DNA from: a virus
Taxonomy: Duplodnaviria > Heunggongvirae > Uroviricota > Caudoviricetes
DNA length: 13,627 nucleotides
Virus record (IMG/VR): IMGVR_UViG_2579778952_000003
Strand: one strand, 5' to 3'
This document shows, in pieces, positions 783 to 13,419 of this stretch. The position numbers and the translations under genes are program-made. The notes below the pieces were generated by a model. That model saw only the letters and a list, made by a program, of their open reading frames with translations. It was not told where the DNA came from and ran no database searches. Within the stretch, counting starts at the first letter, position 1. Each line of letters starts with the position of its first letter.

Positions 783-1076
783 TTAACGTCGTAACCGCTC
801 CGGCTTCTTCCAGTGGTAAGTAATTTTTTCTTTCTCCTGGTACATCTCCACGCGGCGACGATATGACAACAACTCCAGAACTCTGGTGCGTATATTGCGT
901 ATATCCACGCCGTTAAGCTCGATACCGTCACGGCGCATCACCTCAGCCACCACACGCGCGTAATTTTCGGCTATCACGCTGTCCGGCTGCGTGGCCTCCT
1001 GTTTGCCTGCTTCCTGGCTGATTCCGGTAACGCGACGGATTATTTTTAGTAGTTCGGTTTCGCTCATTCTCGTCAT
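783..1076 (-). CDS. Hypothetical protein (97 aa), last gene of the packaging operon; possibly a head completion or adaptor protein
   Basis: ORF overlaps the TerL stop by 4 nt, suggesting translational coupling. No recognisable motif; the functional guess is from position only. Confidence 0.5.
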   Translation of the reverse strand: MTRMSETELLKIIRRVTGISQEAGKQEATQPDSVIAENYARVVAEVMRRDGIELNGVDIRNIRTRVLELLSYRRRVEMYQEKEKITYHWKKPERLRR

Positions 1077-2734
1077 CCCCCATCAACCGCCGAAAGCCGC
1101 TCTTTGTGGCTGTCGCTTATATCAAATGCAAATTCCTCATGTTCTGCCTGGAATGTGCCAAACGCCATCAGAGCCGCAACGCTCGGGTCTATCTTGTTGG
1201 ATGATTTTTTCTTGTTCGGCTTGATATTGGCGTTCGCGTCACTCTGCATCACAACATTACTCATTGACCAGGCCAGCACCGGATCGCCACGATGCACAAT
1301 CACCTTCCGGTTAACAAAAACTTCGAACGATTTCGCCGCCGGACTGAAACGAAGGTATGTTTGCGGGAACGGCTCCACCTCAAATCCTGCCCCCTGTAGC
1401 TGCGTCCTCAGGTGCGTGGCGTTCCATGTATCGAAGCCCACCAGCCTGATATTGAAATTCTCTGCATCCGCCATGATGTCATCACGGATACGGTCATAAT
1501 CAATGCAGTCACCCGGTGTTGTGCGTATCCAGCCCGCCTTTACCCACTGGCGATAGATGGCGCGGTTTTTATTGGCGGGGTTCTGTAGCTGAAATTCCGG
1601 CAGATAGTGACGGGAAACCAGCATAATCTTTTTACCGACCGGAAAGGCATAGCACACGCTGGAAATATCGCTGGTTGATGATAAGTCCAGCCCCGCGTAG
1701 CACTCCTGACCGTATAAATCTGCCTCCGCGAACGTTCCGGCGCACTCCGTCCATGCACCGTTACCCATCCACGGCGTAGCCCCCTGACACCAGATATTGA
1801 ATCGCTTGGTGAGCATTTCCACCCACTGCGACGGAATACCCCGCGCTTTCTGGATGGTTGAGGCCAGTTTTTCACGATCGACGGAAACATCGATATTGGG
1901 ATTCGCCTTTATCCACATCGCCGGATCGTCAACCTCGCTTTCATCATCCAGCTCGTAAATCAGCACGAACATGGATTCGTTCACCTCTTCACCATCCAGT
2001 ATCTGGCAGCAATAGTCATAGTGTTGTTTACAGGCTGAAACAACGTTGCTCCCCGATGTGGTGATGGCAAATAACAGCCCCTCCGGACGCGCCCCCATTC
2101 CCAGTTCAAGCGCGGAATAAACCCCGTTGTCAGGGTGCAGGTGATATTCATCCACAATGGCAAGACTCGGGTTTGTACCTTCAATGGTTGCCGCTTTTGC
2201 TGCCAGTGGCTTTAACAGGCTGTTGGTTTTCGGGTGTATCACCTTGTGTGCCTGAATATTTACCCGCTTTCGTAACGGTCGGGATAAAAGGCACATCTGA
2301 CGCGCATCATCAAACACGATCCGCGCCTGATCACGACTCACGGCGGCGGTGTAAATATCCTGCTGCCCGTTTTCCATAACCAGAAACCAGTTAGCCAGGA
2401 TAGCGGCGACCGTGGATTTGGCATTTTTTCGCGGCACTTCAATGAATGCGCTGGTGTATTTGCGCCGTCCGGTGGCCTTAACCTTAAAGCCCAGGATGCA
2501 CGCAAAGGCGAACTGCTGCCACGGCTCCAGCTCAATGGGGCTACCGCGCATTGCGCCTTTTACGTGCGGACACACCCTGGAAAAGGCAATAAACCGCTCC
2601 ACGACCTCCGGATCGAACGTGTAAAGGGGGTTTTCAAGGTCAGAAAAATACCGTTTAACGGCCTGTTTCAGTCGTTTACAGGCCGTAATTTTGCCGTTTT
2701 TTACGCCTTCTGCGTACTCATGCCAGGCGGTCAA
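1073..2734 (-). CDS. terL: Terminase large subunit (553 aa)
   Basis: N-terminal ATPase region with a PRKNAKST P-loop-like motif and overall large-terminase sequence character. Start appears to be TTG at 2734 with a GAGGA Shine-Dalgarno 5 nt upstream; the start overlaps the TerS 3' end by 17 nt. Confidence 0.9.
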   Translation of the reverse strand: MTAWHEYAEGVKNGKITACKRLKQAVKRYFSDLENPLYTFDPEVVERFIAFSRVCPHVKGAMRGSPIELEPWQQFAFACILGFKVKATGRRKYTSAFIEVPRKNAKSTVAAILANWFLVMENGQQDIYTAAVSRDQARIVFDDARQMCLLSRPLRKRVNIQAHKVIHPKTNSLLKPLAAKAATIEGTNPSLAIVDEYHLHPDNGVYSALELGMGARPEGLLFAITTSGSNVVSACKQHYDYCCQILDGEEVNESMFVLIYELDDESEVDDPAMWIKANPNIDVSVDREKLASTIQKARGIPSQWVEMLTKRFNIWCQGATPWMGNGAWTECAGTFAEADLYGQECYAGLDLSSTSDISSVCYAFPVGKKIMLVSRHYLPEFQLQNPANKNRAIYRQWVKAGWIRTTPGDCIDYDRIRDDIMADAENFNIRLVGFDTWNATHLRTQLQGAGFEVEPFPQTYLRFSPAAKSFEVFVNRKVIVHRGDPVLAWSMSNVVMQSDANANIKPNKKKSSNKIDPSVAALMAFGTFQAEHEEFAFDISDSHKERLSAVDGG

Positions 2735-4105: not shown

Positions 4106-5312
4106 CTTTTCTCCCTTTAATTTCCACAGTCTGTTTCCATGCCTGGCTGAACTCATCACCACCTTCACGCGGCGGCATACCCTCGCGTTCGCGAGCTTCG
4201 TTCGGATTCATGATCCCGCTCTTAATCCCTTTCTCATACGTGGCATAACGTTCGGTGGGTGTGGCGCGCAGTAAATCGGCTGAATCAAACTCAACCAGAT
4301 AACGGGTACCAGGTACGGGAGAAGTCACCAGCAAAGCGGCCTTGATTTGCTGTTCGAAGTTCGCCAGCCACGGGCGCATTGTCATGGTCAGAAATGCGCG
4401 GCTCGCCTCACTGAAATTGCTGTAGGTGCTGTTGCTGTATTCCTGAAGAAAAATCGGCGACACGTTGAACATCCTGGCGATGTCTTCAATGGAGAAGCGA
4501 CGGGAGGCCAGCCATTCCGCATCCTGGTTACTCATCCCCAGCTGCCTGTAATCCATGCCCCCTTCAAGGATTGGCGTTTTTCCGGCATTTTTCGCCCCCT
4601 TGTAGCGTTCCAGTGCGTCTAATGCCTGTTTACCTTTCACGCCGTCCAGCCATTCACCTGACGTGATAATCCCTGCCGCCATCATGCCATCTTTCATAAT
4701 GCTGGCTCCGTGACGCTGTTGAGCAAGGCCAAGCCCCAGCGCCTCACGGCAAATCGTGACGGGGGAACGCCCCAGAAAGCCATCATCCGAGGCATAGCGG
4801 AGATGCAGAACTTCTTCCTGTAAATACGTGCGCACCGTTCCTGTACAGGGTTCGGTGATGGTATAGCGGTATTTGTGTGTGCCTGTGCGTTCCGGTACAA
4901 CACACCCCGGCGCATAAGGATGAAGTGATTTTGGCTGCCCGTCCCGCCCCCACTCAATAACCGCATAGGCGTTACCGTTCAGCAGGCAGTGACGCATCAT
5001 TGTGCGTTTAAACTGGTAAGGTGTCAGGCACGAATTAGGCTGCTCATTCAGCAGAATATCTACCGGGTGACTGTCCAGCCATTCCCGCGCCTCTCTGCCC
5101 TTATCATTGCGTACCAGATACAGGTAACACGGCATCGTGGCCACCGCCTCAGCGATGACAGAAACCGCGTTCATCACAGCAGGCAATGATTCAGCCGTCC
5201 CGGCAGAAACATATTCTCCGGATCCGGTATTTGGTACACCAGACAACGCCAGAAAATCATCAATGGACAGGTTACGCAGATCGCTTTTTTTACGACTAAA
5301 AGGCCACCACAT
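4098..5312 (-). CDS. Portal protein, HK97 family (about 404 aa from ATG at 5312)
   Basis: Conserved portal blocks LNGNAYA, EVLHLRY, REALGLGLA, DAEWLASRRFSIEDIARMFNVSP and a C-terminal PPREGGDE. Start MWWPFSRKK sits 1 nt after the protease stop. Confidence 0.9.
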   Translation of the reverse strand: MWWPFSRKKSDLRNLSIDDFLALSGVPNTGSGEYVSAGTAESLPAVMNAVSVIAEAVATMPCYLYLVRNDKGREAREWLDSHPVDILLNEQPNSCLTPYQFKRTMMRHCLLNGNAYAVIEWGRDGQPKSLHPYAPGCVVPERTGTHKYRYTITEPCTGTVRTYLQEEVLHLRYASDDGFLGRSPVTICREALGLGLAQQRHGASIMKDGMMAAGIITSGEWLDGVKGKQALDALERYKGAKNAGKTPILEGGMDYRQLGMSNQDAEWLASRRFSIEDIARMFNVSPIFLQEYSNSTYSNFSEASRAFLTMTMRPWLANFEQQIKAALLVTSPVPGTRYLVEFDSADLLRATPTERYATYEKGIKSGIMNPNEAREREGMPPREGGDEFSQAWKQTVEIKGRKDE

Positions 5313-7342: not shown

Positions 7343-7591
7343 TTATTGTTTCACTGGCTCCCGCATTCTGCGTCTTATTTTCCACAAATATTCGATCATC
7401 GCTTCCACCTGCTCACGGTTGGTTGCGAAAATTTCCCCGGTCAGTGAGCTACGCAGAAAATCATGATGATCCACAAAAAATAACGCATCGGAAGAAAGCA
7501 ACCGACGATATTTTTTTGCTGTCGTGGTTTCCAGATCATCAAAACCATGAAGCTTTTTATGTTGCTGAACTTCTTCAAATGTCACTGGCAT
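7343..7591 (-). CDS. Hypothetical protein (82 aa), last gene of the early operon
   Basis: AGGGGGA Shine-Dalgarno just upstream of the ATG at 7591; overlaps the ProQ/FinO-like gene end by 10 nt; followed by the terminator. Confidence 0.55.
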   Translation of the reverse strand: MPVTFEEVQQHKKLHGFDDLETTTAKKYRRLLSSDALFFVDHHDFLRSSLTGEIFATNREQVEAMIEYLWKIRRRMREPVKQ

Positions 7592-8112
7592 GTATCCCCC
7601 TTTGCTGCCCGGCGCTGGCGCTTGTGCTTCTCATTCAGCACCATCAGCCGTGTTTCTGCCTCCTGCTGTTCCTGTGGTGTCACTTCCCCACATGGCTGGC
7701 CTTTCAGGTCGTAACGTGCGCCACCAGCTATCAGGGCGCGGTAATAGCGCGGAGACTGCGCATAGGATGCCAGCGTCGCACGTAATACCCCCGGCCCGAA
7801 TGCCAGCCCCCTGACGGCGATATCCTGCATCAGGTCGTCGAATATCCCCACCTTAAGCGGCTTCGGTGCTTTATGGCTGAATAAGTCAGGCCACATCTCA
7901 GTGAGGCGGTTAACGCGTCGGCGGTTTTTGCGCTGCCTTTTGGTCATATGCTGCCACGGTGTCGCCCCTGTGGGCTTCTGCTGTGCGTTCTGATTGCCGG
8001 GTATCACTTTATGCGCCGATGTGGTTTTATCCTGCTCTTGCGCCGCCTGCGTCGTTTTCTGCGGCGTGCCGTAAATGCCTTTCGGCTTCCGGTTAATGGT
8101 CAGCGTTGTCAT
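7582..8112 (-). CDS. ProQ/FinO-domain RNA-binding protein (176 aa)
   Basis: PLKVGIFDDLMQDI and ASYAQSPRYYRALIAGGARYDLKGQPCGEVTPQEQQEAETRL parallel the E. coli ProQ N-terminal FinO-like domain (PLKIGIFQDL ... [35 protein letters not shown]) as recalled from memory. Basic, Gln-rich N-terminal extension; AGGGGAAGG Shine-Dalgarno. Confidence 0.8.
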   Translation of the reverse strand: MTTLTINRKPKGIYGTPQKTTQAAQEQDKTTSAHKVIPGNQNAQQKPTGATPWQHMTKRQRKNRRRVNRLTEMWPDLFSHKAPKPLKVGIFDDLMQDIAVRGLAFGPGVLRATLASYAQSPRYYRALIAGGARYDLKGQPCGEVTPQEQQEAETRLMVLNEKHKRQRRAAKGDTCQ

Positions 8113-8148: not shown

Positions 8149-8574
8149 TTAAAACGGTATGTTATCCCCGTACGGGTCATCGTGCTGGCTTGTCTGTTGT
8201 TTTGCCCTGTTCAGTGCGTCAGTGGCCTGGCCCTGTTGACCTTTTTTGCCGCCCGGTCGCGCCGTTCGCGCACTGATTACGCTGTCTGCAATAACCTGCC
8301 AGCCCTGCCGCGTTTCCCCGTTCTGGCCTGTCCACTGGCTCACCTGCATGTTACCCGCCACGCTCACCAGTTCGCCTTTGTGGTGTTTTGCCAGTGCGTC
8401 GGCCTGTCTGCCAAACGCCAGGACAGATAACCACATCGTCGCCGTTCCGTCATCTGCCTGGCTGCACGGCAGGGGAACCGCCATACTCGCCATCGCCATT
8501 TGTGTCCCTTTGCTGGTGGTCTTTAACTGCGGGTCAGCCACCAGCCGCCCGTAAGCCGCTATCTGTGCTGTCAT
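8149..8574 (-). CDS. ssb: Single-stranded DNA-binding protein homologue (141 aa)
   Basis: OB-fold-like core (IAAYGRLVADPQLK ... WLSVLAFGRQADALAKHHKGELVSVAGNMQVSQWTGQNGETRQGW), Gly/Gln-rich linker and an acidic C-terminal tip ending DNIPF (E. coli SSB ends DDDIPF). Confidence 0.8.
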   Translation of the reverse strand: MTAQIAAYGRLVADPQLKTTSKGTQMAMASMAVPLPCSQADDGTATMWLSVLAFGRQADALAKHHKGELVSVAGNMQVSQWTGQNGETRQGWQVIADSVISARTARPGGKKGQQGQATDALNRAKQQTSQHDDPYGDNIPF

Positions 8575-8816: not shown

Positions 8817-8860
8817 AGGCTTTACCTCACAGCAATAAAATAAAATTTTTGCATTTTAAC

Positions 8861-9090
8861 CCTTCACCTGTTCACCTTTTGAGATTTTCCCTTTTTATTC
8901 ATAATGTTAAGGGGTGAACAGTTTCACAAAAACTATTCACCAACTGTTCACCACTGTTCACCCTTAAAGCTCAATAAATAATCAAAAAGGTGAACAGTGA
9001 ATAGTTTGGTGAACAGTTCACAAATAACTGTTCACCCTATAATGTACTGATATAAAAGATATTTATAACAGGGTGAACAGTGGTGAACAG
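8861..9090. repeat. Iteron array of TGTTCACC / GGTGAACA octamers in both orientations: candidate origin of replication
   Basis: At least nine copies read directly (8868-8876, 8914-8921, 8944-8952, 8954-8962, 8989-8998, 9008-9017, 9029-9037, 9072-9080, 9082-9090) in an AT-rich context directly 3' of the primase gene. TGTTCACC is the octamer bound by P4 alpha protein at ori and crr. Confidence 0.8.
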
Positions 9091-9103
9091 TTATTCCATA
9101 AGT

Positions 9104-10918
9104 TTAATTTTTGCTGTCGTCATTTGTGACCGATGCACATGATGGCATCCAGTCTTCTGAATCCTCTGTCAGTGTCACATTTGAACGCAAACCGTGCTTC
9201 GTTTTCCGTTTTATATACTCCCTGCCATATTCCGCCATTGCCCCCGGCATATCTTTACCGAAGCGCGTCAGTGTTACAGGTTTACCGAATCCGTGTGCCC
9301 TCATATATGCCAGATAGGCGTGATAAAGATACCTGCGCGGACTGAACGGAATAATTTCGGCATTACCCACTAACAGACCATCACACATTACCGACGACAT
9401 GAGATAGCCACAGAAGTCCACCAGCGAATCGCCCTCGCGTTTTATCACCAGAGCTTCTTCTGATTTCTGCTGCTCATACAGCAGGCGTTTAGCTTCGTCC
9501 TGGTCAGAAAAACGAGTAAGCAGATGGCGAATCACAACCGCCAGCTCTCCTTCTATTTTTTCTGCCAGCATGGGGTCGCGCTCGTTCTCCGGTACAACCT
9601 CCGAAAAATTGAATATCACCCGACGACGTGAGATCCCCCCGCTGCGGTCACTGAATGACATGGCGTTATTGTTCACCGCCAGCACGACCGCCTGAATGCG
9701 TGTTGAGTAGGGGGCTTTATGCTTCGGGTCGATTGCCACCTTGTCACCGCCTGTAATAGCCTTAATTCCTGCGCCATCACCAGCGTAGCGGGTCATATCC
9801 GGCATGATAATCAGCGAAAAGCCAACCACTAACGCGCGTTCCCTTGCATCTTCCAGCGCCTTCATGCTTGCCGATACTGTGTTGGCCTTACCCGCCAGCA
9901 TGGTGCAAATCTCCGCCATCACGCTTTTACCACTTCCCCCTGGACCTGTTACCTCAATGAATAACTGCCAGTCGTACCGGTTCGCCAGCACCATGAATAA
10001 TGCAGCCAGCACGCGATCCGTCTTGCGGTCATTCTCTGCCACCGAGCAGCGTAACCACTTCCAGAAATTCGGCGCATGTGTTGCCAGCGTTTCCCCCTCT
10101 GCTGGTGGGCTGAAAGGTAATTCACTGGCAATTAACAACCAGTCGTTTTTGTTATGCTCCCGAAAATTACCTGTTCTGGTATCAAATACCCCGTTACTGA
10201 ATCCAATCAGGTTACGGGCTGTATTCCCCATTACAGGCAAACTTAACTTCATGGTATCGACCGCCGATTTAATGGCGTTCTGCGAATAGCTGATCTCCGC
10301 ATCAATGAAAATCTGCGCCATAGCACGCTGTAACTCTTTATCCTGAATCGGCTCCCATACAACGCCGTTGTAATGGTGAACAGTGTCAGAGTCGGCATGA
10401 ATCGCCAGTTCACCGCCATAATGTGCCAGGAGAACTTCGCCGCGCTGGCTTGCTCCCATCTGGTTAAGCGCCAGTGGTGCGGCGCTGTCTTCTGTTTTTT
10501 TCTTAACAGGAAGCTGAATCACCAGACCATCAGAAAGATTCTGGCGCTCACGGGCCAGATATTCGCGCCAGTTCTGCACCTCCTGGCCGTGCATACCCTC
10601 AGGATAAAAATTTGCATCCTGTACGCCTGCCGCCGCCAGCTTCTGACCAATCGCCTTTATCATTACTGGCGCAAGATATCCGGCCCTGAATATGCGCACG
10701 GATTTTCTGCCTTCCGGCACAATTTGCAGCTTATCCAGTTCGGATAACTGCTGCTCCCCAAGCCACACAGGAGGCTCATTATCTCCGGCCATACGCGCGT
10801 CATGTTCCTGCCATTGTTTTGCGTGTGACCAGGCATCACTACCCGCAAAAATAATGACTTCTGTTTCTTTGTGTTTTATGCCGCGTGACTGCTGTTTTAC
10901 GTTCGGTGCCAGTTTCAT
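9104..10918 (-). CDS. P4 alpha-type primase-helicase (604 aa)
   Basis: Primase-like N-terminal half, Walker A GPGGSGKS in the middle, long C-terminal domain; adjacent to the iterons it would bind. AGGGG Shine-Dalgarno; ATG overlaps the upstream gene's stop (ATGA). Confidence 0.9.
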   Translation of the reverse strand: MKLAPNVKQQSRGIKHKETEVIIFAGSDAWSHAKQWQEHDARMAGDNEPPVWLGEQQLSELDKLQIVPEGRKSVRIFRAGYLAPVMIKAIGQKLAAAGVQDANFYPEGMHGQEVQNWREYLARERQNLSDGLVIQLPVKKKTEDSAAPLALNQMGASQRGEVLLAHYGGELAIHADSDTVHHYNGVVWEPIQDKELQRAMAQIFIDAEISYSQNAIKSAVDTMKLSLPVMGNTARNLIGFSNGVFDTRTGNFREHNKNDWLLIASELPFSPPAEGETLATHAPNFWKWLRCSVAENDRKTDRVLAALFMVLANRYDWQLFIEVTGPGGSGKSVMAEICTMLAGKANTVSASMKALEDARERALVVGFSLIIMPDMTRYAGDGAGIKAITGGDKVAIDPKHKAPYSTRIQAVVLAVNNNAMSFSDRSGGISRRRVIFNFSEVVPENERDPMLAEKIEGELAVVIRHLLTRFSDQDEAKRLLYEQQKSEEALVIKREGDSLVDFCGYLMSSVMCDGLLVGNAEIIPFSPRRYLYHAYLAYMRAHGFGKPVTLTRFGKDMPGAMAEYGREYIKRKTKHGLRSNVTLTEDSEDWMPSCASVTNDDSKN

Positions 10919-11214
10919 TTTTTACCCCTGAATCCGTTAATCATGGTTTTCAGCTTCTGGATGTTTGCCCGTGCCCTGGCGTTGCTGGTGGACACGTTAT
11001 GCGGCGCGGTCTGTACCAGAGAAAAATCACGCCGGAACTGATAAACAGGCATCACGCAATCATATTCGTAACCTTCACGGCGGTAGGTTACGCGCCGTTC
11101 TTCCACGCCCTTAATCATTACCGTGCCGCCGTACTGGTCGCGGTAAATATCGCCGCGCGTAAATTTAGGGTGAGTGTTGCCACTGGCAGTTAAGCCAGAA
11201 TATTTAAGTTTCAT
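10915..11214 (-). CDS. Hypothetical protein (99 aa)
   Basis: ORF translationally coupled to the primase; no recognisable motif. Confidence 0.55.
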   Translation of the reverse strand: MKLKYSGLTASGNTHPKFTRGDIYRDQYGGTVMIKGVEERRVTYRREGYEYDCVMPVYQFRRDFSLVQTAPHNVSTSNARARANIQKLKTMINGFRGKK

Positions 11215-12039: not shown

Positions 12040-12256
12040 GGTGCACCTCCTGCACATCAGCCATGATAATTTTTCCGGCCTTATCCAGTGCCTGATCGGC
12101 TTTTAGCTGCACAAATGCTAAATAATGGAAGATGCATTCTGATTCTCTGGCTGCGTGTTTATGCGCCCTGTCAGCAATAACAGAAATATCAATAAGCGCG
12201 TGCATCAGCGTAGTGAGCGCGGCGGCTGCTGCGTCCGGTGTGGTTTTATTGCACAT
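12032..12256 (-). CDS. Hypothetical protein (74 aa)
   Basis: AGGGGG Shine-Dalgarno upstream of the ATG at 12256; overlaps neighbours at both ends. Confidence 0.5.
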   Translation of the reverse strand: MCNKTTPDAAAAALTTLMHALIDISVIADRAHKHAARESECIFHYLAFVQLKADQALDKAGKIIMADVQEVHHA

Positions 12257-12452
12257 GGCCTACCCCCTGGCGAATACGGGCAGCGAATACCATCACGCAG
12301 CCAGCCGGGGATTGCTGGCGTGCTTCCTGTTCGCTGGTGGCCTCAATGGTAATCACGCGCGGTTGTGCCGTGCTCAGGGCGATAAAACGCCAGATGTATT
12401 TATTCAGGTTGTACGAGTCCCGCCCTTGCGGGTGTCTGGTATAATTTCTCAT
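12246..12452 (-). CDS. Hypothetical protein (68 aa), first gene of the early operon
   Basis: GAGGT Shine-Dalgarno 5 nt upstream of the ATG at 12452 (MRNYT...). This is the credible 3' portion of the 305-aa track ORF, whose upstream part is rejected. Confidence 0.5.
   Translation of the reverse strand: MRNYTRHPQGRDSYNLNKYIWRFIALSTAQPRVITIEATSEQEARQQSPAGCVMVFAARIRQGVGHVQ
12437..12445 (+). promoter_or_regulatory. Extended -10 promoter element TGgTATAAT on the plus strand, antisense to the first early gene
   Basis: Perfect TATAAT at 12440-12445 preceded by TG at 12437-12438; a plus-strand terminator follows 45-85 nt downstream. No good -35, which an extended -10 can do without. Confidence 0.3.
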
Positions 12453-12530
12453 AGCTACCTCGATACTATCGTTATCGTTGGTGGTTAGAAGCCCGTTGGT
12501 GTTCCTAGCGCCTTCGGGCTTTGCTTTTTT
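12452..12530 (+). ncRNA. Candidate cis-antisense small RNA (about 75-80 nt) complementary to the ribosome-binding site and start of the first early gene
   Basis: Inferred only from the promoter-like element at 12437-12445 plus the terminator at 12489-12530. Not demonstrated. Confidence 0.25.
12489..12530 (+). terminator. Candidate plus-strand intrinsic terminator in the switch region
   Basis: AAGCCCG (12489-12495) pairs with CGGGCTT (12515-12521); an alternative compact GCC-UUCG-GGC hairpin sits inside the loop; followed by TTTGCTTTTTT. Confidence 0.4.
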
Positions 12531-12545
12531 AAGTGTCCCTGTGTT

Positions 12546-12591
12546 AAGGTGACCACCTAACAATAGAAAGGCTAATTCAATAGGTGACCAC
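12546..12591. promoter_or_regulatory. Two direct copies of (A/T)AGGTGACCAC, each containing the GGTnACC palindrome, flanking a TAGA-containing spacer; candidate operator
   Basis: Copies at 12546-12557 and 12581-12591; the second overlaps the likely Shine-Dalgarno (AGGTG) of the Arc-like gene. Confidence 0.4.
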
Positions 12592-12783
12592 TTGTCAACA
12601 ATCAAACGTGATAAAAGCCCTAAGGGTGATGGGCAATCCCCACAATTCAGAATGCGAATTTCTCCAGAGCTAAAAGAGCAATTCGACAAAGAAGCGCAGA
12701 GCGACGGCATAAGCCTAGCCAACTGGCTTAAAGAGTTGGGGCGCGCTGAACTAAAGCGGCGCGGTATAGAACCCAAAGGTTGA
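12592..12783 (+). CDS. Arc/Mnt-like ribbon-helix-helix DNA-binding protein (63 aa with TTG start), divergent from the early operon
   Basis: PQFRMRISPELKEQFDKEAQSDGISLANWLKEL parallels P22 Arc (PQFNLRWPREVLDLVRKVAEENGRSVNSEIYQRV) and Mnt (PHFNFRMPMEVREKLKFRAEANGRSMNSELLQIV) as recalled from memory. An ATG start at 12652 would cut the beta-strand, so TTG at 12592 is favoured. Confidence 0.65.
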   Translation: MSTIKRDKSPKGDGQSPQFRMRISPELKEQFDKEAQSDGISLANWLKELGRAELKRRGIEPKG

Positions 12784-12921
12784 TAGCCCACCAGCAAGCC
12801 AGCACATTCACCATAATGACCCTCGGTTAAACCTAGAGTCATTGGTGTAAACCTGACAGATTGTCCACCAGCCGCAAATGTGGCATTGTTGGTGATGCTT
12901 TTGTTTTCCCTTGTTCCCACT

Positions 12922-12950
12922 GGCGACCCTTTTGCGGTCGCCTTTGTTTT
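12922..12950 (+). terminator. Plus-strand intrinsic terminator downstream of the Arc-like gene
   Basis: GGCGACC-cttttgc-GGTCGCC (7-bp perfect stem) followed by TTTGTTTT. Confidence 0.6.
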
Positions 12951-13045
12951 GCCTGTTATCCGGCAATAGTGGCGCTTCACCACACGGTTGATATAATTCC
13001 CCTGCACTGATCCATTTTTTTCGCAGCAGGTTAATTGTTCAGAAA

Positions 13046-13073
13046 GGCGGTTCCTTATCGGGGCCGCTTTTTT
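13046..13073 (+). terminator. Possible second plus-strand terminator
   Basis: Short GC stem (GCGG ... CCGC) followed by a T7 run. Stem is weak. Confidence 0.3.
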
Positions 13074-13188
13074 TATGCCTGAAAATACCCGATAACATGG
13101 CTTTTTAGTTTCACCAGGACGAACGAAGCCCCGCCCCTGTTCGGGCGTATATCCAGTATTCATGGTTAGATCTCTGTGTTAGTGGATG

Positions 13189-13209
13189 GGTGGCGGCGGT
13201 GCGCCGCCA
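13189..13209. other. Perfect GC hairpin GGCGGCG-gtg-CGCCGCC directly 3' of alpA, with no U tract
   Basis: 7-bp all-GC stem with a 3-nt loop, 7 nt after the alpA stop. Not a canonical intrinsic terminator. Confidence 0.5.
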
Positions 13210-13215
13210 GCCTGA

Positions 13216-13419
13216 TTAGTGAACTGCCTCGCGGCTGTCCTTCCATGCCAGAACTTCGGATAAAGACCAGCCAACGGAACGACCGCCGAGTTTACGCCGT
13301 GATGGGAATTGTCCAGTCTTCTCCAGGCGATACCGACATGAGCGGCTCAGGCCTGTAAGTTGCTGACATTCTTTTTCACGTATAAAGCGATCAGCGCTTA
13401 ACACTATTGCCTCCGTCAT
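13216..13419 (-). CDS. alpA: AlpA-family transcriptional regulator / excisionase-like protein (67 aa)
   Basis: LTGLSRSCRYRLEKTGQFPSRRKLGGRSVGWSLSEVLAW matches the AlpA (prophage CP4-57 regulator) helix-turn-helix signature. GGAGG Shine-Dalgarno 5 nt upstream of the ATG. Confidence 0.85.
   Translation of the reverse strand: MTEAIVLSADRFIREKECQQLTGLSRSCRYRLEKTGQFPSRRKLGGRSVGWSLSEVLAWKDSREAVH

Follow-up and report, generated by a model that had tools for sequence, protein, structure and literature searches.

A candidate P4-type immunity region with an Arc-like repressor and a predicted SymR-like antisense RNA in a capsid-forming phage satellite island

The DNA analyzed here is IMG/VR virus record IMGVR_UViG_2579778952_000003 (Caudoviricetes), a stretch of 13,627 nt which we call the window, and the part under study is the switch region from which an early operon is read on the minus strand. 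The operon opens with a gene for an Icd-like protein, comparable with kil of P4. It is faced on the plus strand by a gene for an Arc-like ribbon-helix-helix protein, with two predicted operators in between. A short plus-strand RNA is predicted to be antisense to the leader of the Icd-like gene, and a minus-strand frame without stop codons, comparable with eta of P4, runs across the whole arrangement. The coordinates are collected in Table 1. Comparisons were made with a set of relatives composed of 11 loci from species-representative genomes and 80 loci from IMG/VR.

Table 1. Elements of the switch region, followed by the other genes of the island; positions are those of the window
Feature	Position	Strand	Remarks
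Icd-like (P4 kil-like) gene, 68 aa	12246-12452	-	first cistron after the early promoter; NCBIfam phage_ICD_like, 1.5e-19
eta-like stop-free frame, 305 codons	12246-13163	-	ATG at 13163, just after alpA
Predicted antisense-RNA promoter, extended -10 TGgTATAAT	12437-12445	+	within codons 3-5 of the icd/kil-like gene
Predicted cis-antisense RNA, about 79 nt, SymR-like	12452-12530	+	complementary to the leader and Shine-Dalgarno sequence of the icd/kil-like gene
Stem-loop I	12452-12487	+	lower stem 12452-12459/12480-12487, upper stem 12461-12465/12473-12477
Stem-loop II and U-tract, predicted intrinsic terminator of the antisense RNA	12488-12530	+	
Predicted operator O1, AGGTGACCACCT	12547-12558		about +5 to +17 of the early transcript
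Predicted operator O2, AGGTGACCACTT	12582-12593		in the early-promoter spacer, adjoining the -35; overlaps the Shine-Dalgarno sequence and start of the Arc-like gene
Predicted early promoter (P4 PLE equivalent)	12569-12598	-	read from sequence
Arc-like ribbon-helix-helix repressor gene, 63 aa, TTG start	12592-12783	+	
alpA (P4 vis homologue), upstream activator gene	13216-13419	-	Pfam Phage_AlpA, 3.4e-18
Three small overlapping open reading frames	between the Icd-like and DUF4222 genes	-	
DUF4222 gene	10915-11214	-	
D5-type primase	9104-10918	-	
SSB	8149-8574	-	
ProQ/FinO-family gene	7582-8112	-	Pfam PF04352, 1.2e-23
Capsid, protease, portal, connector, HNH, TerS	between the ProQ/FinO and TerL genes	-	
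TerL	1073-2734	-	

The Arc/Mnt-like open reading frame (ORF) described in an earlier note, which was made from the sequence of the window, is present, with a Shine-Dalgarno (SD) sequence AGGTGA 4 nt 5' of the TTG start. In all, 55 clusters of homologues were identified across the Enterobacterales, nearly all of 63-64 aa, and these are named 'HicB family antitoxin' at NCBI. When a profile of the homologues was compared with all PDB sequences, the best match was P22 Arc (E = 0.0084), in an alignment of residues 2-48 that spans nearly all of Arc, including the KG..K.PQF.(L/M)R arm and strand. A match to the PHROG family 'Arc-like repressor' was also obtained (4.6e-7). The AlphaFold2 model (pLDDT 83, and >90 over residues 21-60) contains helices 25-37 and 42-56 after an extended FRMRI segment; it represents the monomer, and the strand pairs only in the dimer. 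Foldseek comparison of this model with the PDB placed Arc chains in the top eight positions (TMt 0.77-0.89), followed by CopG, AmrZ, NikA and ParG, with an identity to Arc at the fold level of only 22-28%. The modelled protein contains the N-terminal strand segment and the two helices of the ribbon-helix-helix family, and two 12-bp palindromes lie close by. The same repressor/operator cassette is present in Escherichia coli O157:H7, in Sp7 of strain Sakai (also named CP-933C or OI-51), beside roxA. Comparison of the gene between the window and O157 gave 9 synonymous and 1 non-synonymous codon changes, from which it is judged to be under purifying selection.

The repressor gene and the early operon are divergent, as had been noted earlier: the gene faces the operon and its presumed operators overlap the early promoter. 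This promoter is predicted from a -35 box TTGACA (12593-12598), an 18-nt spacer and a -10 box TAGCCT (12569-12574), with a start near 12562-12564, and relatives carry TTGAC(A/G), 17-18 nt and TAnnnT at the same site. The two intergenic repeats previously pointed out are two exact copies of AGGTGACCAC, at 12547-12556 and 12582-12591; a third site with one mismatch is located elsewhere in the window, where 0.55 sites are expected at one mismatch or fewer. Each copy forms the core of a 12-bp near-palindrome of the form AGGTG-ac-CACCT, the centres being 35 bp apart, and together O1 and O2 bracket the -10 and the start site of the early promoter. Comparison of the window with O157 shows 95% identity for the repressor gene and the operators, against 74% for hairpin II and 61% for stem I of the predicted RNA and 38% for the 5' end of icd, which leads us to conclude that repressor and operators move as one cassette. 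In some relatives the cassette is swapped for other repressor alleles, or for a second family of small proteins (DUF3950/YlcI-YnfO type, PHROG 949/6522), which from its sequence pattern and one DUF3950 match also appears to be of ribbon-helix-helix type. Every such swap brings its own palindromes at the same two positions.

The Icd-like gene is preceded by an SD sequence GAGG at 12458-12461, has its start codon at 12450-12452 and overlaps the next ORF by 11 nt. Its first codons contain the plus-strand extended -10 element which the earlier note had placed at this position, and which is indeed there: TGNTATAAT has only two matches in the 13.6-kb window, where 0.32 are expected, and both are on the plus strand of the regulatory region. 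No change in the TG or at hexamer positions 1, 2, 3 and 6 occurs among 81 relatives, and a single change occurs at position 5; variation is seen at hexamer position 4 (A/G/T, non-synonymous, giving Y/H/N) and at the n of TGn. Other classes of icd N-terminus have TATGCT, TGaTATGCT, TATGAT or TAGACT 7-13 nt before the CAT that is the complement of the start codon. In the window the element ends 7 nt before the base of stem I, the predicted RNA start is at 12451-12453 and CAT is at 12450-12452. The terminator proposed downstream was also recovered, as a nested hairpin (12488-12522) followed by GCUUUUUU up to 12530, with a run of 6 U; a simple terminator scan missed this hairpin II because of the inner loop in its stem. 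Stem-loop I has a 7-nt loop (12466-12472) and contains the anti-SD sequence CCUC. The RNA had been expected to be fully complementary to both the SD sequence and the start codon of the first early gene; this stands for the SD sequence, which would be covered entirely, and fails for the start codon, of which only 1-2 nt would be covered. A 14-bp palindrome, CCCGCCCTTGCGGG (12420-12433), is located directly 5' of the antisense -10 and shows two single substitutions in 81 relatives, and a related GCCCCGCCCCTGTTCGGGCG is found at 13128-13147, at the start of the eta-like frame. Both could be sites at which a protein binds, perhaps AlpA.

For the plus-strand RNA 12450-12535 the computed fold consists of two hairpins and has an energy of -36.1 kcal/mol (z = -5.4), which none of 200 shuffled sequences reaches, whereas the complementary sense leader (z = -1.3) is no better than its shuffles. 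In the loci from species genomes, the stretch of approximately 80 nt that precedes the icd start adopts the same two-hairpin fold despite widely differing sequence; among the 11 loci the exceptions are L004, which is truncated, and L005, which has a leader of another type (see below). Covariation was examined in an alignment of 47 distinct sequences, from relatives of about 10 genera. The two-hairpin structure pairs 93.8% of cells, as against 35-50% when the partners are slid, and 13 pairs show double, compensatory changes. Stem I has 97.7% of its cells paired, with covariation in the upper stem (exchanges of AU and UA and of CG and UA); in hairpin II compensatory changes occur in 10 of 15 pairs. 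On the antisense strand there are 209 G·U cells and 16 pair positions with any G·U, compared with 14 cells and 2 positions on the sense strand, an asymmetry which assigns the structure to the plus strand of the window. The U-run after hairpin II is likewise found on the plus strand only, in all types. All of 54 distinct sequences fold better as the antisense strand, by 4-17 kcal/mol. The hairpins are also the places of strong variation: the loop of stem I exists in nine 7-nt variants among 80 relatives, with near-invariant flanks, and hairpin II in 15 sequence types. Both features also differ between L026 and L091, two islands in IMG genome 2541047882. This pattern is as expected for specificity determinants of the kissing-loop kind.

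In four relatives (L008, L009, L012 and L071) the antisense strand, and only that strand, matches the Rfam SymR model RF01809 over its full length (1-77), at 33-37 bits where the gathering score of the family is 61 bits; E values are 0.0025-0.017 in 56 kb and 7.5e-6 in a local search. Position 1 of the SymR model coincides in these four with the RNA start predicted from the -10 element. In the opposite direction, a covariance model of the island RNAs (R1) recovers symR of E. coli K-12 (21.1 bits, E = 4e-4) as the best non-self match in 41 kb, at positions 4839-4919 of the K-12 locus (L093), where symR is annotated at 4836-4912. Outside its seed, this model also picks up members in LR881103 and in O157 Sakai, where the predicted RNA would lie at NC_002695.2 1597425-1597502 on the minus strand. 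The similarity between the island RNA and SymR, as far as such model comparisons tell, is weak and remote, yet real in being specific and reciprocal. SymR is a 77-nt RNA with its promoter inside symE, and it blocks SymE translation independently of Hfq and RNase III (PMC1891008). The layout read here is closely comparable: the -10 hexamer (12440-12445) lies in codons 3-5, the predicted start is at 12451-12453 and the SD sequence at 12458-12461 is covered. Covariation, strand asymmetry and likeness to SymR together give strong comparative support for a short RNA that is read from the plus strand and is antisense to the leader and SD sequence of the first early gene.

The nature of the target suggested that a C4/CI or isrK RNA might be expected in the leader. 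This candidate was rejected: neither C4/CI nor isrK/seqA gave an Rfam match in the window, at E<=1 or at E<=10. In the positive control, the Escherichia albertii locus L005, both RNAs were detected 5' of an Icd-like gene (L005 2235-2423) and on its sense strand, with scores of 77.7 bits for C4 and 61.6 bits for isrK. At least two alternative kinds of RNA immunity thus accompany Icd/kil-like genes. Known small RNAs of enterohaemorrhagic E. coli (EHEC) were also considered and set aside: AgvB/AsxR and the other EcOnc RNAs belong to lambdoid prophages, and 0 of 63 Hfq-CRAC candidates fall in Sakai Sp7.

The earlier note had taken ATG 12452 as the simple start of the first gene of the operon, a reading that does not hold, as the reading frame stays open up to 13163. 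Starting there, the eta-like frame first overlaps the Arc-like gene, on the opposite strand, and then takes in the operators, the early promoter and the target of the antisense RNA before it enters icd/kil without a change of frame. In 62 distinct loci, 13 in-frame stops were counted within the 210 nt 5' of the icd ATG, versus 305 and 379 in the other two frames, and the median open stretch of the frame is about 870 nt. On these counts the openness is not a matter of chance. In loci where the frames differ, the end of the long ORF is no more than about 25 nt from the icd start. Comparison with the 92% identical locus L098 showed a 7-nt insertion and a 1-nt deletion which jointly restore the frame, with substitutions distributed 10:9:8 over the three codon positions. 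The long minus-strand ORF was considered as an ordinary protein and rejected as such: its first 212 residues contain no Pfam domain, PHROG matches are found at the Icd-like end only, codon-position substitutions are even and a frame-shifted stretch is tolerated. What is conserved, as judged from these alignments, is the openness of the frame and not its amino-acid sequence.

The Icd-like domain occupies residues 256-299 of the window ORF 12246-13163 (2.1e-18), and the 214-codon ORF 8168-8812 of P4 carries the same NCBIfam domain at its end, in residues 161-208 (1.4e-20). Forti and co-workers reportedly found in 1999 that kil (65 aa) forms the terminal part of eta, a longer ORF beginning upstream of the constitutive promoter PLE, that P4 immunity controls the translation of kil and thereby Rho-dependent termination, and that transcripts from the upstream promoter, being translated along eta and coupled to vis, read through. 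The eta-like frame of the window is the analogue of this nested-gene design. The P4 immunity mechanism with its nested eta and kil genes is summarized in PMC10111431, where Kil is described as killing cells. Toxicity of the Icd-like protein may be presumed from the family name and by analogy with P4 Kil. In EcCICFT073, AlpA activates its own promoter and the downstream ORF3 (PMC6092414); a read-through alpA transcript in the present island would carry the eta-like frame.

The explanation that we favour, and consider reasonably probable, is that the region is an immunity region of P4 type, built on the eta/kil plan, with an Arc-like repressor and a SymR-like antisense RNA in place of the CI/C4 RNA. 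In the quiescent island, the Arc-like protein would occupy O1 and O2 and shut the early promoter, and with it the operon of icd/kil-like gene, small ORFs, RgdR-like gene and primase. An RNA of about 79 nt would be made constitutively from the extended -10 to the hairpin II terminator. On early mRNA that escapes repression, its loops would first contact the complementary leader hairpins and a full duplex over the SD sequence would follow, by which, on the model of SymR and the anatomy of the locus, translation of the presumably toxic Icd/Kil protein would be blocked. The untranslated transcript could then be exposed to termination or decay, as in P4, and the downstream genes silenced. The hypervariable loop of stem I and the many types of hairpin II would make this control specific to each island. 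At induction, a helper phage would turn on alpA, whose product would activate the alpA promoter together with the ORFs downstream. Transcripts from this promoter may cross the switch and be translated along the eta-like frame into icd/kil, so that initiation at the antisense-blocked SD sequence is not needed; the same read-through would transcribe the repressor gene in antisense.

Several observations weigh against this explanation. The -10 box of the early promoter fits the consensus at 3 of 6 positions, and a consensus scan missed the promoter; between 12531 and 12591 no convincing separate promoter for the Arc-like gene was found. The antisense RNA is a prediction from sequence, the conservation of its -10 element is confounded by coding constraint and by the close kinship of the 81 sequences, and the energy asymmetry between the strands is in part non-specific, given that a G/U-rich strand folds better by composition alone; unlike that part, the pair-by-pair G·U counts in covarying stems are specific. 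The RNA does not appear in the Hfq-CRAC small-RNA list of O157 Sakai, whose Sp7 has the same cassette, but absence from an Hfq-bound list is weak evidence because SymR itself is Hfq-independent. No Rfam match to SymR was obtained in the window (201 nt) even at E<=10, and since the similarity in the relatives is remote and far under the gathering score, we do not file the RNA as a member of the SymR family. The early mRNA has a weak C>G bias and no clear rut-like region, so that a part for Rho is suggested by the analogy with P4 alone.

Other explanations of the same elements were considered. The plus-strand promoter may serve mainly for maintenance of the Arc-like gene, through read-through of hairpin II acting as an attenuator, the short RNA being a by-product; the switch would then be face to face, like pR/pL of coliphage 186 or Pe/Pc of P2. 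The layout gives this some appeal, as there is no credible sigma-70 promoter between the end of the terminator at 12530 and the TTG start at 12592, the repressor gene follows the terminator by only about 60 nt in relatives of the window type, and transcripts from the two convergent promoters would overlap by about 110 nt. Relatives of the other repressor family have their own promoter-like GTGTATACT and a third operator, yet keep the two-hairpin RNA and its terminator; moreover the window terminator is strong, with its 6-U run, and the hypervariable loops and the similarity to SymR suggest a free-standing RNA. We regard such a role as the main function of the promoter as unlikely, although it is compatible with the immunity function proposed above and the two can coexist. 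The elements could also be read as chiefly a type I toxin-antitoxin addiction module like symE/symR, which keeps the island stably and is no immunity or induction switch. The target belongs to the Icd-like 'host cell division inhibitors' and its P4 counterpart kills cells, the RNA resembles the SymR antitoxin, and the layout is that of SymR, with a promoter within the toxin ORF and an RNA over the ribosome-binding site (PMC1891008). Against this, the gene is the first of a tightly overlapping operon to which the primase also belongs, and it is embedded in the eta-like frame under AlpA control, so that blocking it should affect the whole early programme, and toxicity of the 68-aa protein is a presumption drawn from P4. 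We hold this reading to be improbable, while noting that its difference from the immunity explanation is largely one of emphasis.

A last possibility is that the hairpins work in the leader of the sense mRNA, where they could be a protective structure at the 5' end, a site for an RNase or a translational operator bound by a protein, and that no antisense RNA is made. Most stem pairs are Watson-Crick, 78.5% of cells are paired in the sense strand as well, and the SD sequence adjoins the small hairpin. The strand-specific evidence contradicts this reading: G·U cells (209 antisense, 14 sense) and G·U positions (16 and 2) favour the antisense strand, the sense leader folds like its shuffles (z = -1.3), the U-run after hairpin II is antisense-only in all types, a -10 element lies at the right distance upstream and the SymR-model matches are antisense-only. 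A purely sense function is for these reasons very improbable.

The island that carries the switch was characterized by domain searches, which identified alpA, Icd-like, DUF4222, D5-type primase, SSB, capsid, protease, portal, TerS and TerL genes; those from alpA through TerL are all on the minus strand. With alpA, a replication module of primase type and capsid, portal, protease and terminase genes of its own, the window is by its gene content a capsid-forming phage-inducible chromosomal island (cf-PICI), a P4-like satellite. No tail genes were found within the 13.6 kb, and the integrase is outside the window, being found in related loci. Of 5426 complete E. coli genomes, 1358 contain a match to the 176-nt switch core, and a single genome may have as many as six copies. 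In phage genomes the module gave marginal matches only, together with one 16.5-kb 'phage' which is itself such an island.

Further observations concern the rest of the island. About 12 copies of GGTGAACAG, in both orientations, fill the AT-rich gap 8860-9095 beside the primase gene, which is a probable replication origin; these repeats are the cause of spurious Rfam matches to plant miRNAs. The spacer between the repressor gene and alpA (12784-13215) is mosaic among E. coli islands, only 28 genomes matching 80% or more of it, and contains three plus-strand elements composed of a hairpin and a U-run, with similar tails (GCTTTTGTTTTCCCT-like repeats). A second TGaTATAAT is located there at 12989-12997 on the plus strand, followed by a strong terminator at 13041-13075. 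A second small RNA from this element was considered and not retained, since the terminator is kept in O157 but the promoter part is not; the plus-strand segment 12989-13075 may be either a second small RNA or a terminator shielding alpA from transcription of the repressor gene. The antisense RNAs of plasmid F include FinP, a two-stem-loop RNA which is served by a protein of the ProQ/FinO family. An RNA chaperone of this family is encoded in the window at 7582-8112, and no such gene is found at this position in Sakai Sp7; by analogy the island protein is a possible partner of the predicted antisense RNA.

The founding paper on Gram-negative phage-inducible chromosomal islands (PICIs) described the global repressor as 'unclear' and the islands as transcribed one way (PMC6092414), and later work mentions only RNAs of C4/isrK type, in some islands (PMC10111431). 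HicB or YlcI/YnfO genes are listed as accessory in the PICI literature, and nothing relevant was found there on antisense RNA or ribbon-helix-helix repressors in PICIs. The annotations offer a reason for this. They call the stop-free frame a hypothetical protein and omit the Arc-like gene, as in L094 (3010-3753), L096 (6732-7475, Sakai ECs_1576) and L097 (682-1656), and in LR881103 the frame is annotated as a coding sequence of 324 aa; with the Arc-like gene omitted, the islands look unidirectional and the cassette is overlooked. Each part is known in kind (Arc-type repressor, SymR-type RNA, P4 eta/kil frame), and the combination as a PICI immunity cassette appears to be undescribed. The DUF4222 gene at 10915-11214, within the operon under the switch, is a homologue of RgdR (ECs1581), a regulator of the type III secretion system of the enterocyte effacement locus (LEE) and of motility in EHEC (PMC3378721), and for this reason the switch may influence virulence gene expression besides island mobilization. 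RgdR was considered as the small repressor and discarded, being the product of this different gene farther down the operon.

What these data offer is a concrete and testable repressor/operator/antisense-RNA cassette for a large class of widespread Gram-negative PICIs. More tentatively, with somewhat less than even confidence, we propose that the Arc-like repressor and the SymR-like RNA are the missing master immunity module of many Gram-negative PICIs and cf-PICIs, including O157 Sp7/CP-933C, that the kissing loops and hairpin II types are the island-specific determinants which let several related islands coexist within a single cell, and that AlpA-driven translation of the eta-like frame overrides both locks. 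Antisense control of SymR type would then extend from one chromosomal toxin locus to a mobile and modular cassette.

The switch was finally compared with known systems. The likeness to P22 immI proposed in the earlier note stands for the Arc-family repressor, in a region which, as predicted here, shares with immI an operator inside the promoter and a small antisense RNA that would block translation. It does not extend to Mnt, ant or sar: only one ribbon-helix-helix gene is present, the operon opens with icd/kil-like and replication genes, and neither sar nor any other Rfam family has a match in 12400-12600. The island repressor gene is divergent from the operon it would control, whereas in immI it is the first gene of that operon, and its product resembles Arc in fold and profile only; immI is therefore a functional analogy. 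In the FinP/FinO-traJ system of F-like plasmids and the CopA/CopB-repA system of R1, an antisense RNA of two stem-loops and about 79-90 nt acts against the leader and ribosome-binding site of a gene for a key regulator; contact is made by loop-loop kissing, loop variation sets specificity and R1 adds a small protein repressor. The island shares with them the two stem-loops, the similar length, the type of target and the variable loops, as well as a ProQ/FinO gene in the window, but the likeness noted is one of layout, and the ProQ/FinO gene is accessory, being absent from related islands, among them Sakai Sp7.

With SymR/SymE, the predicted RNA has in common its cis-antisense nature, a length of about 77-79 nt, two hairpins, a promoter in the first codons of the target ORF, a 5' end at the start codon and coverage of the SD sequence. 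In both cases the promoter of the target is also repressed by a protein, at symE by LexA (Kawano et al. 2007, PMC1891008) and here, as predicted, by the Arc-like protein. The target differs, being Icd/Kil-like and heading a satellite replication operon whereas SymE is a toxin of AbrB fold; K-12 SymR ends without a U-run whereas the island RNA ends at a canonical terminator; and the hairpins are hypervariable between islands. With the P4 immunity region the common points concern the whole plan: alpA/vis followed by a long ORF whose C-terminal 65 aa or so are a separately translated Icd-like protein, a promoter inside this ORF, a long frame open through the immunity region and an RNA immunity factor, here a predicted one, acting on kil translation. 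The island RNA is on the opposite strand, whereas the CI RNA of P4 is processed from the leader, and the island has a divergent Arc-like repressor with operators in the long frame, whereas P4 is without a protein immunity repressor. From these comparisons, the real architectural relative of the switch is the P4 immunity region, and the nearest known family of its predicted RNA is SymR.

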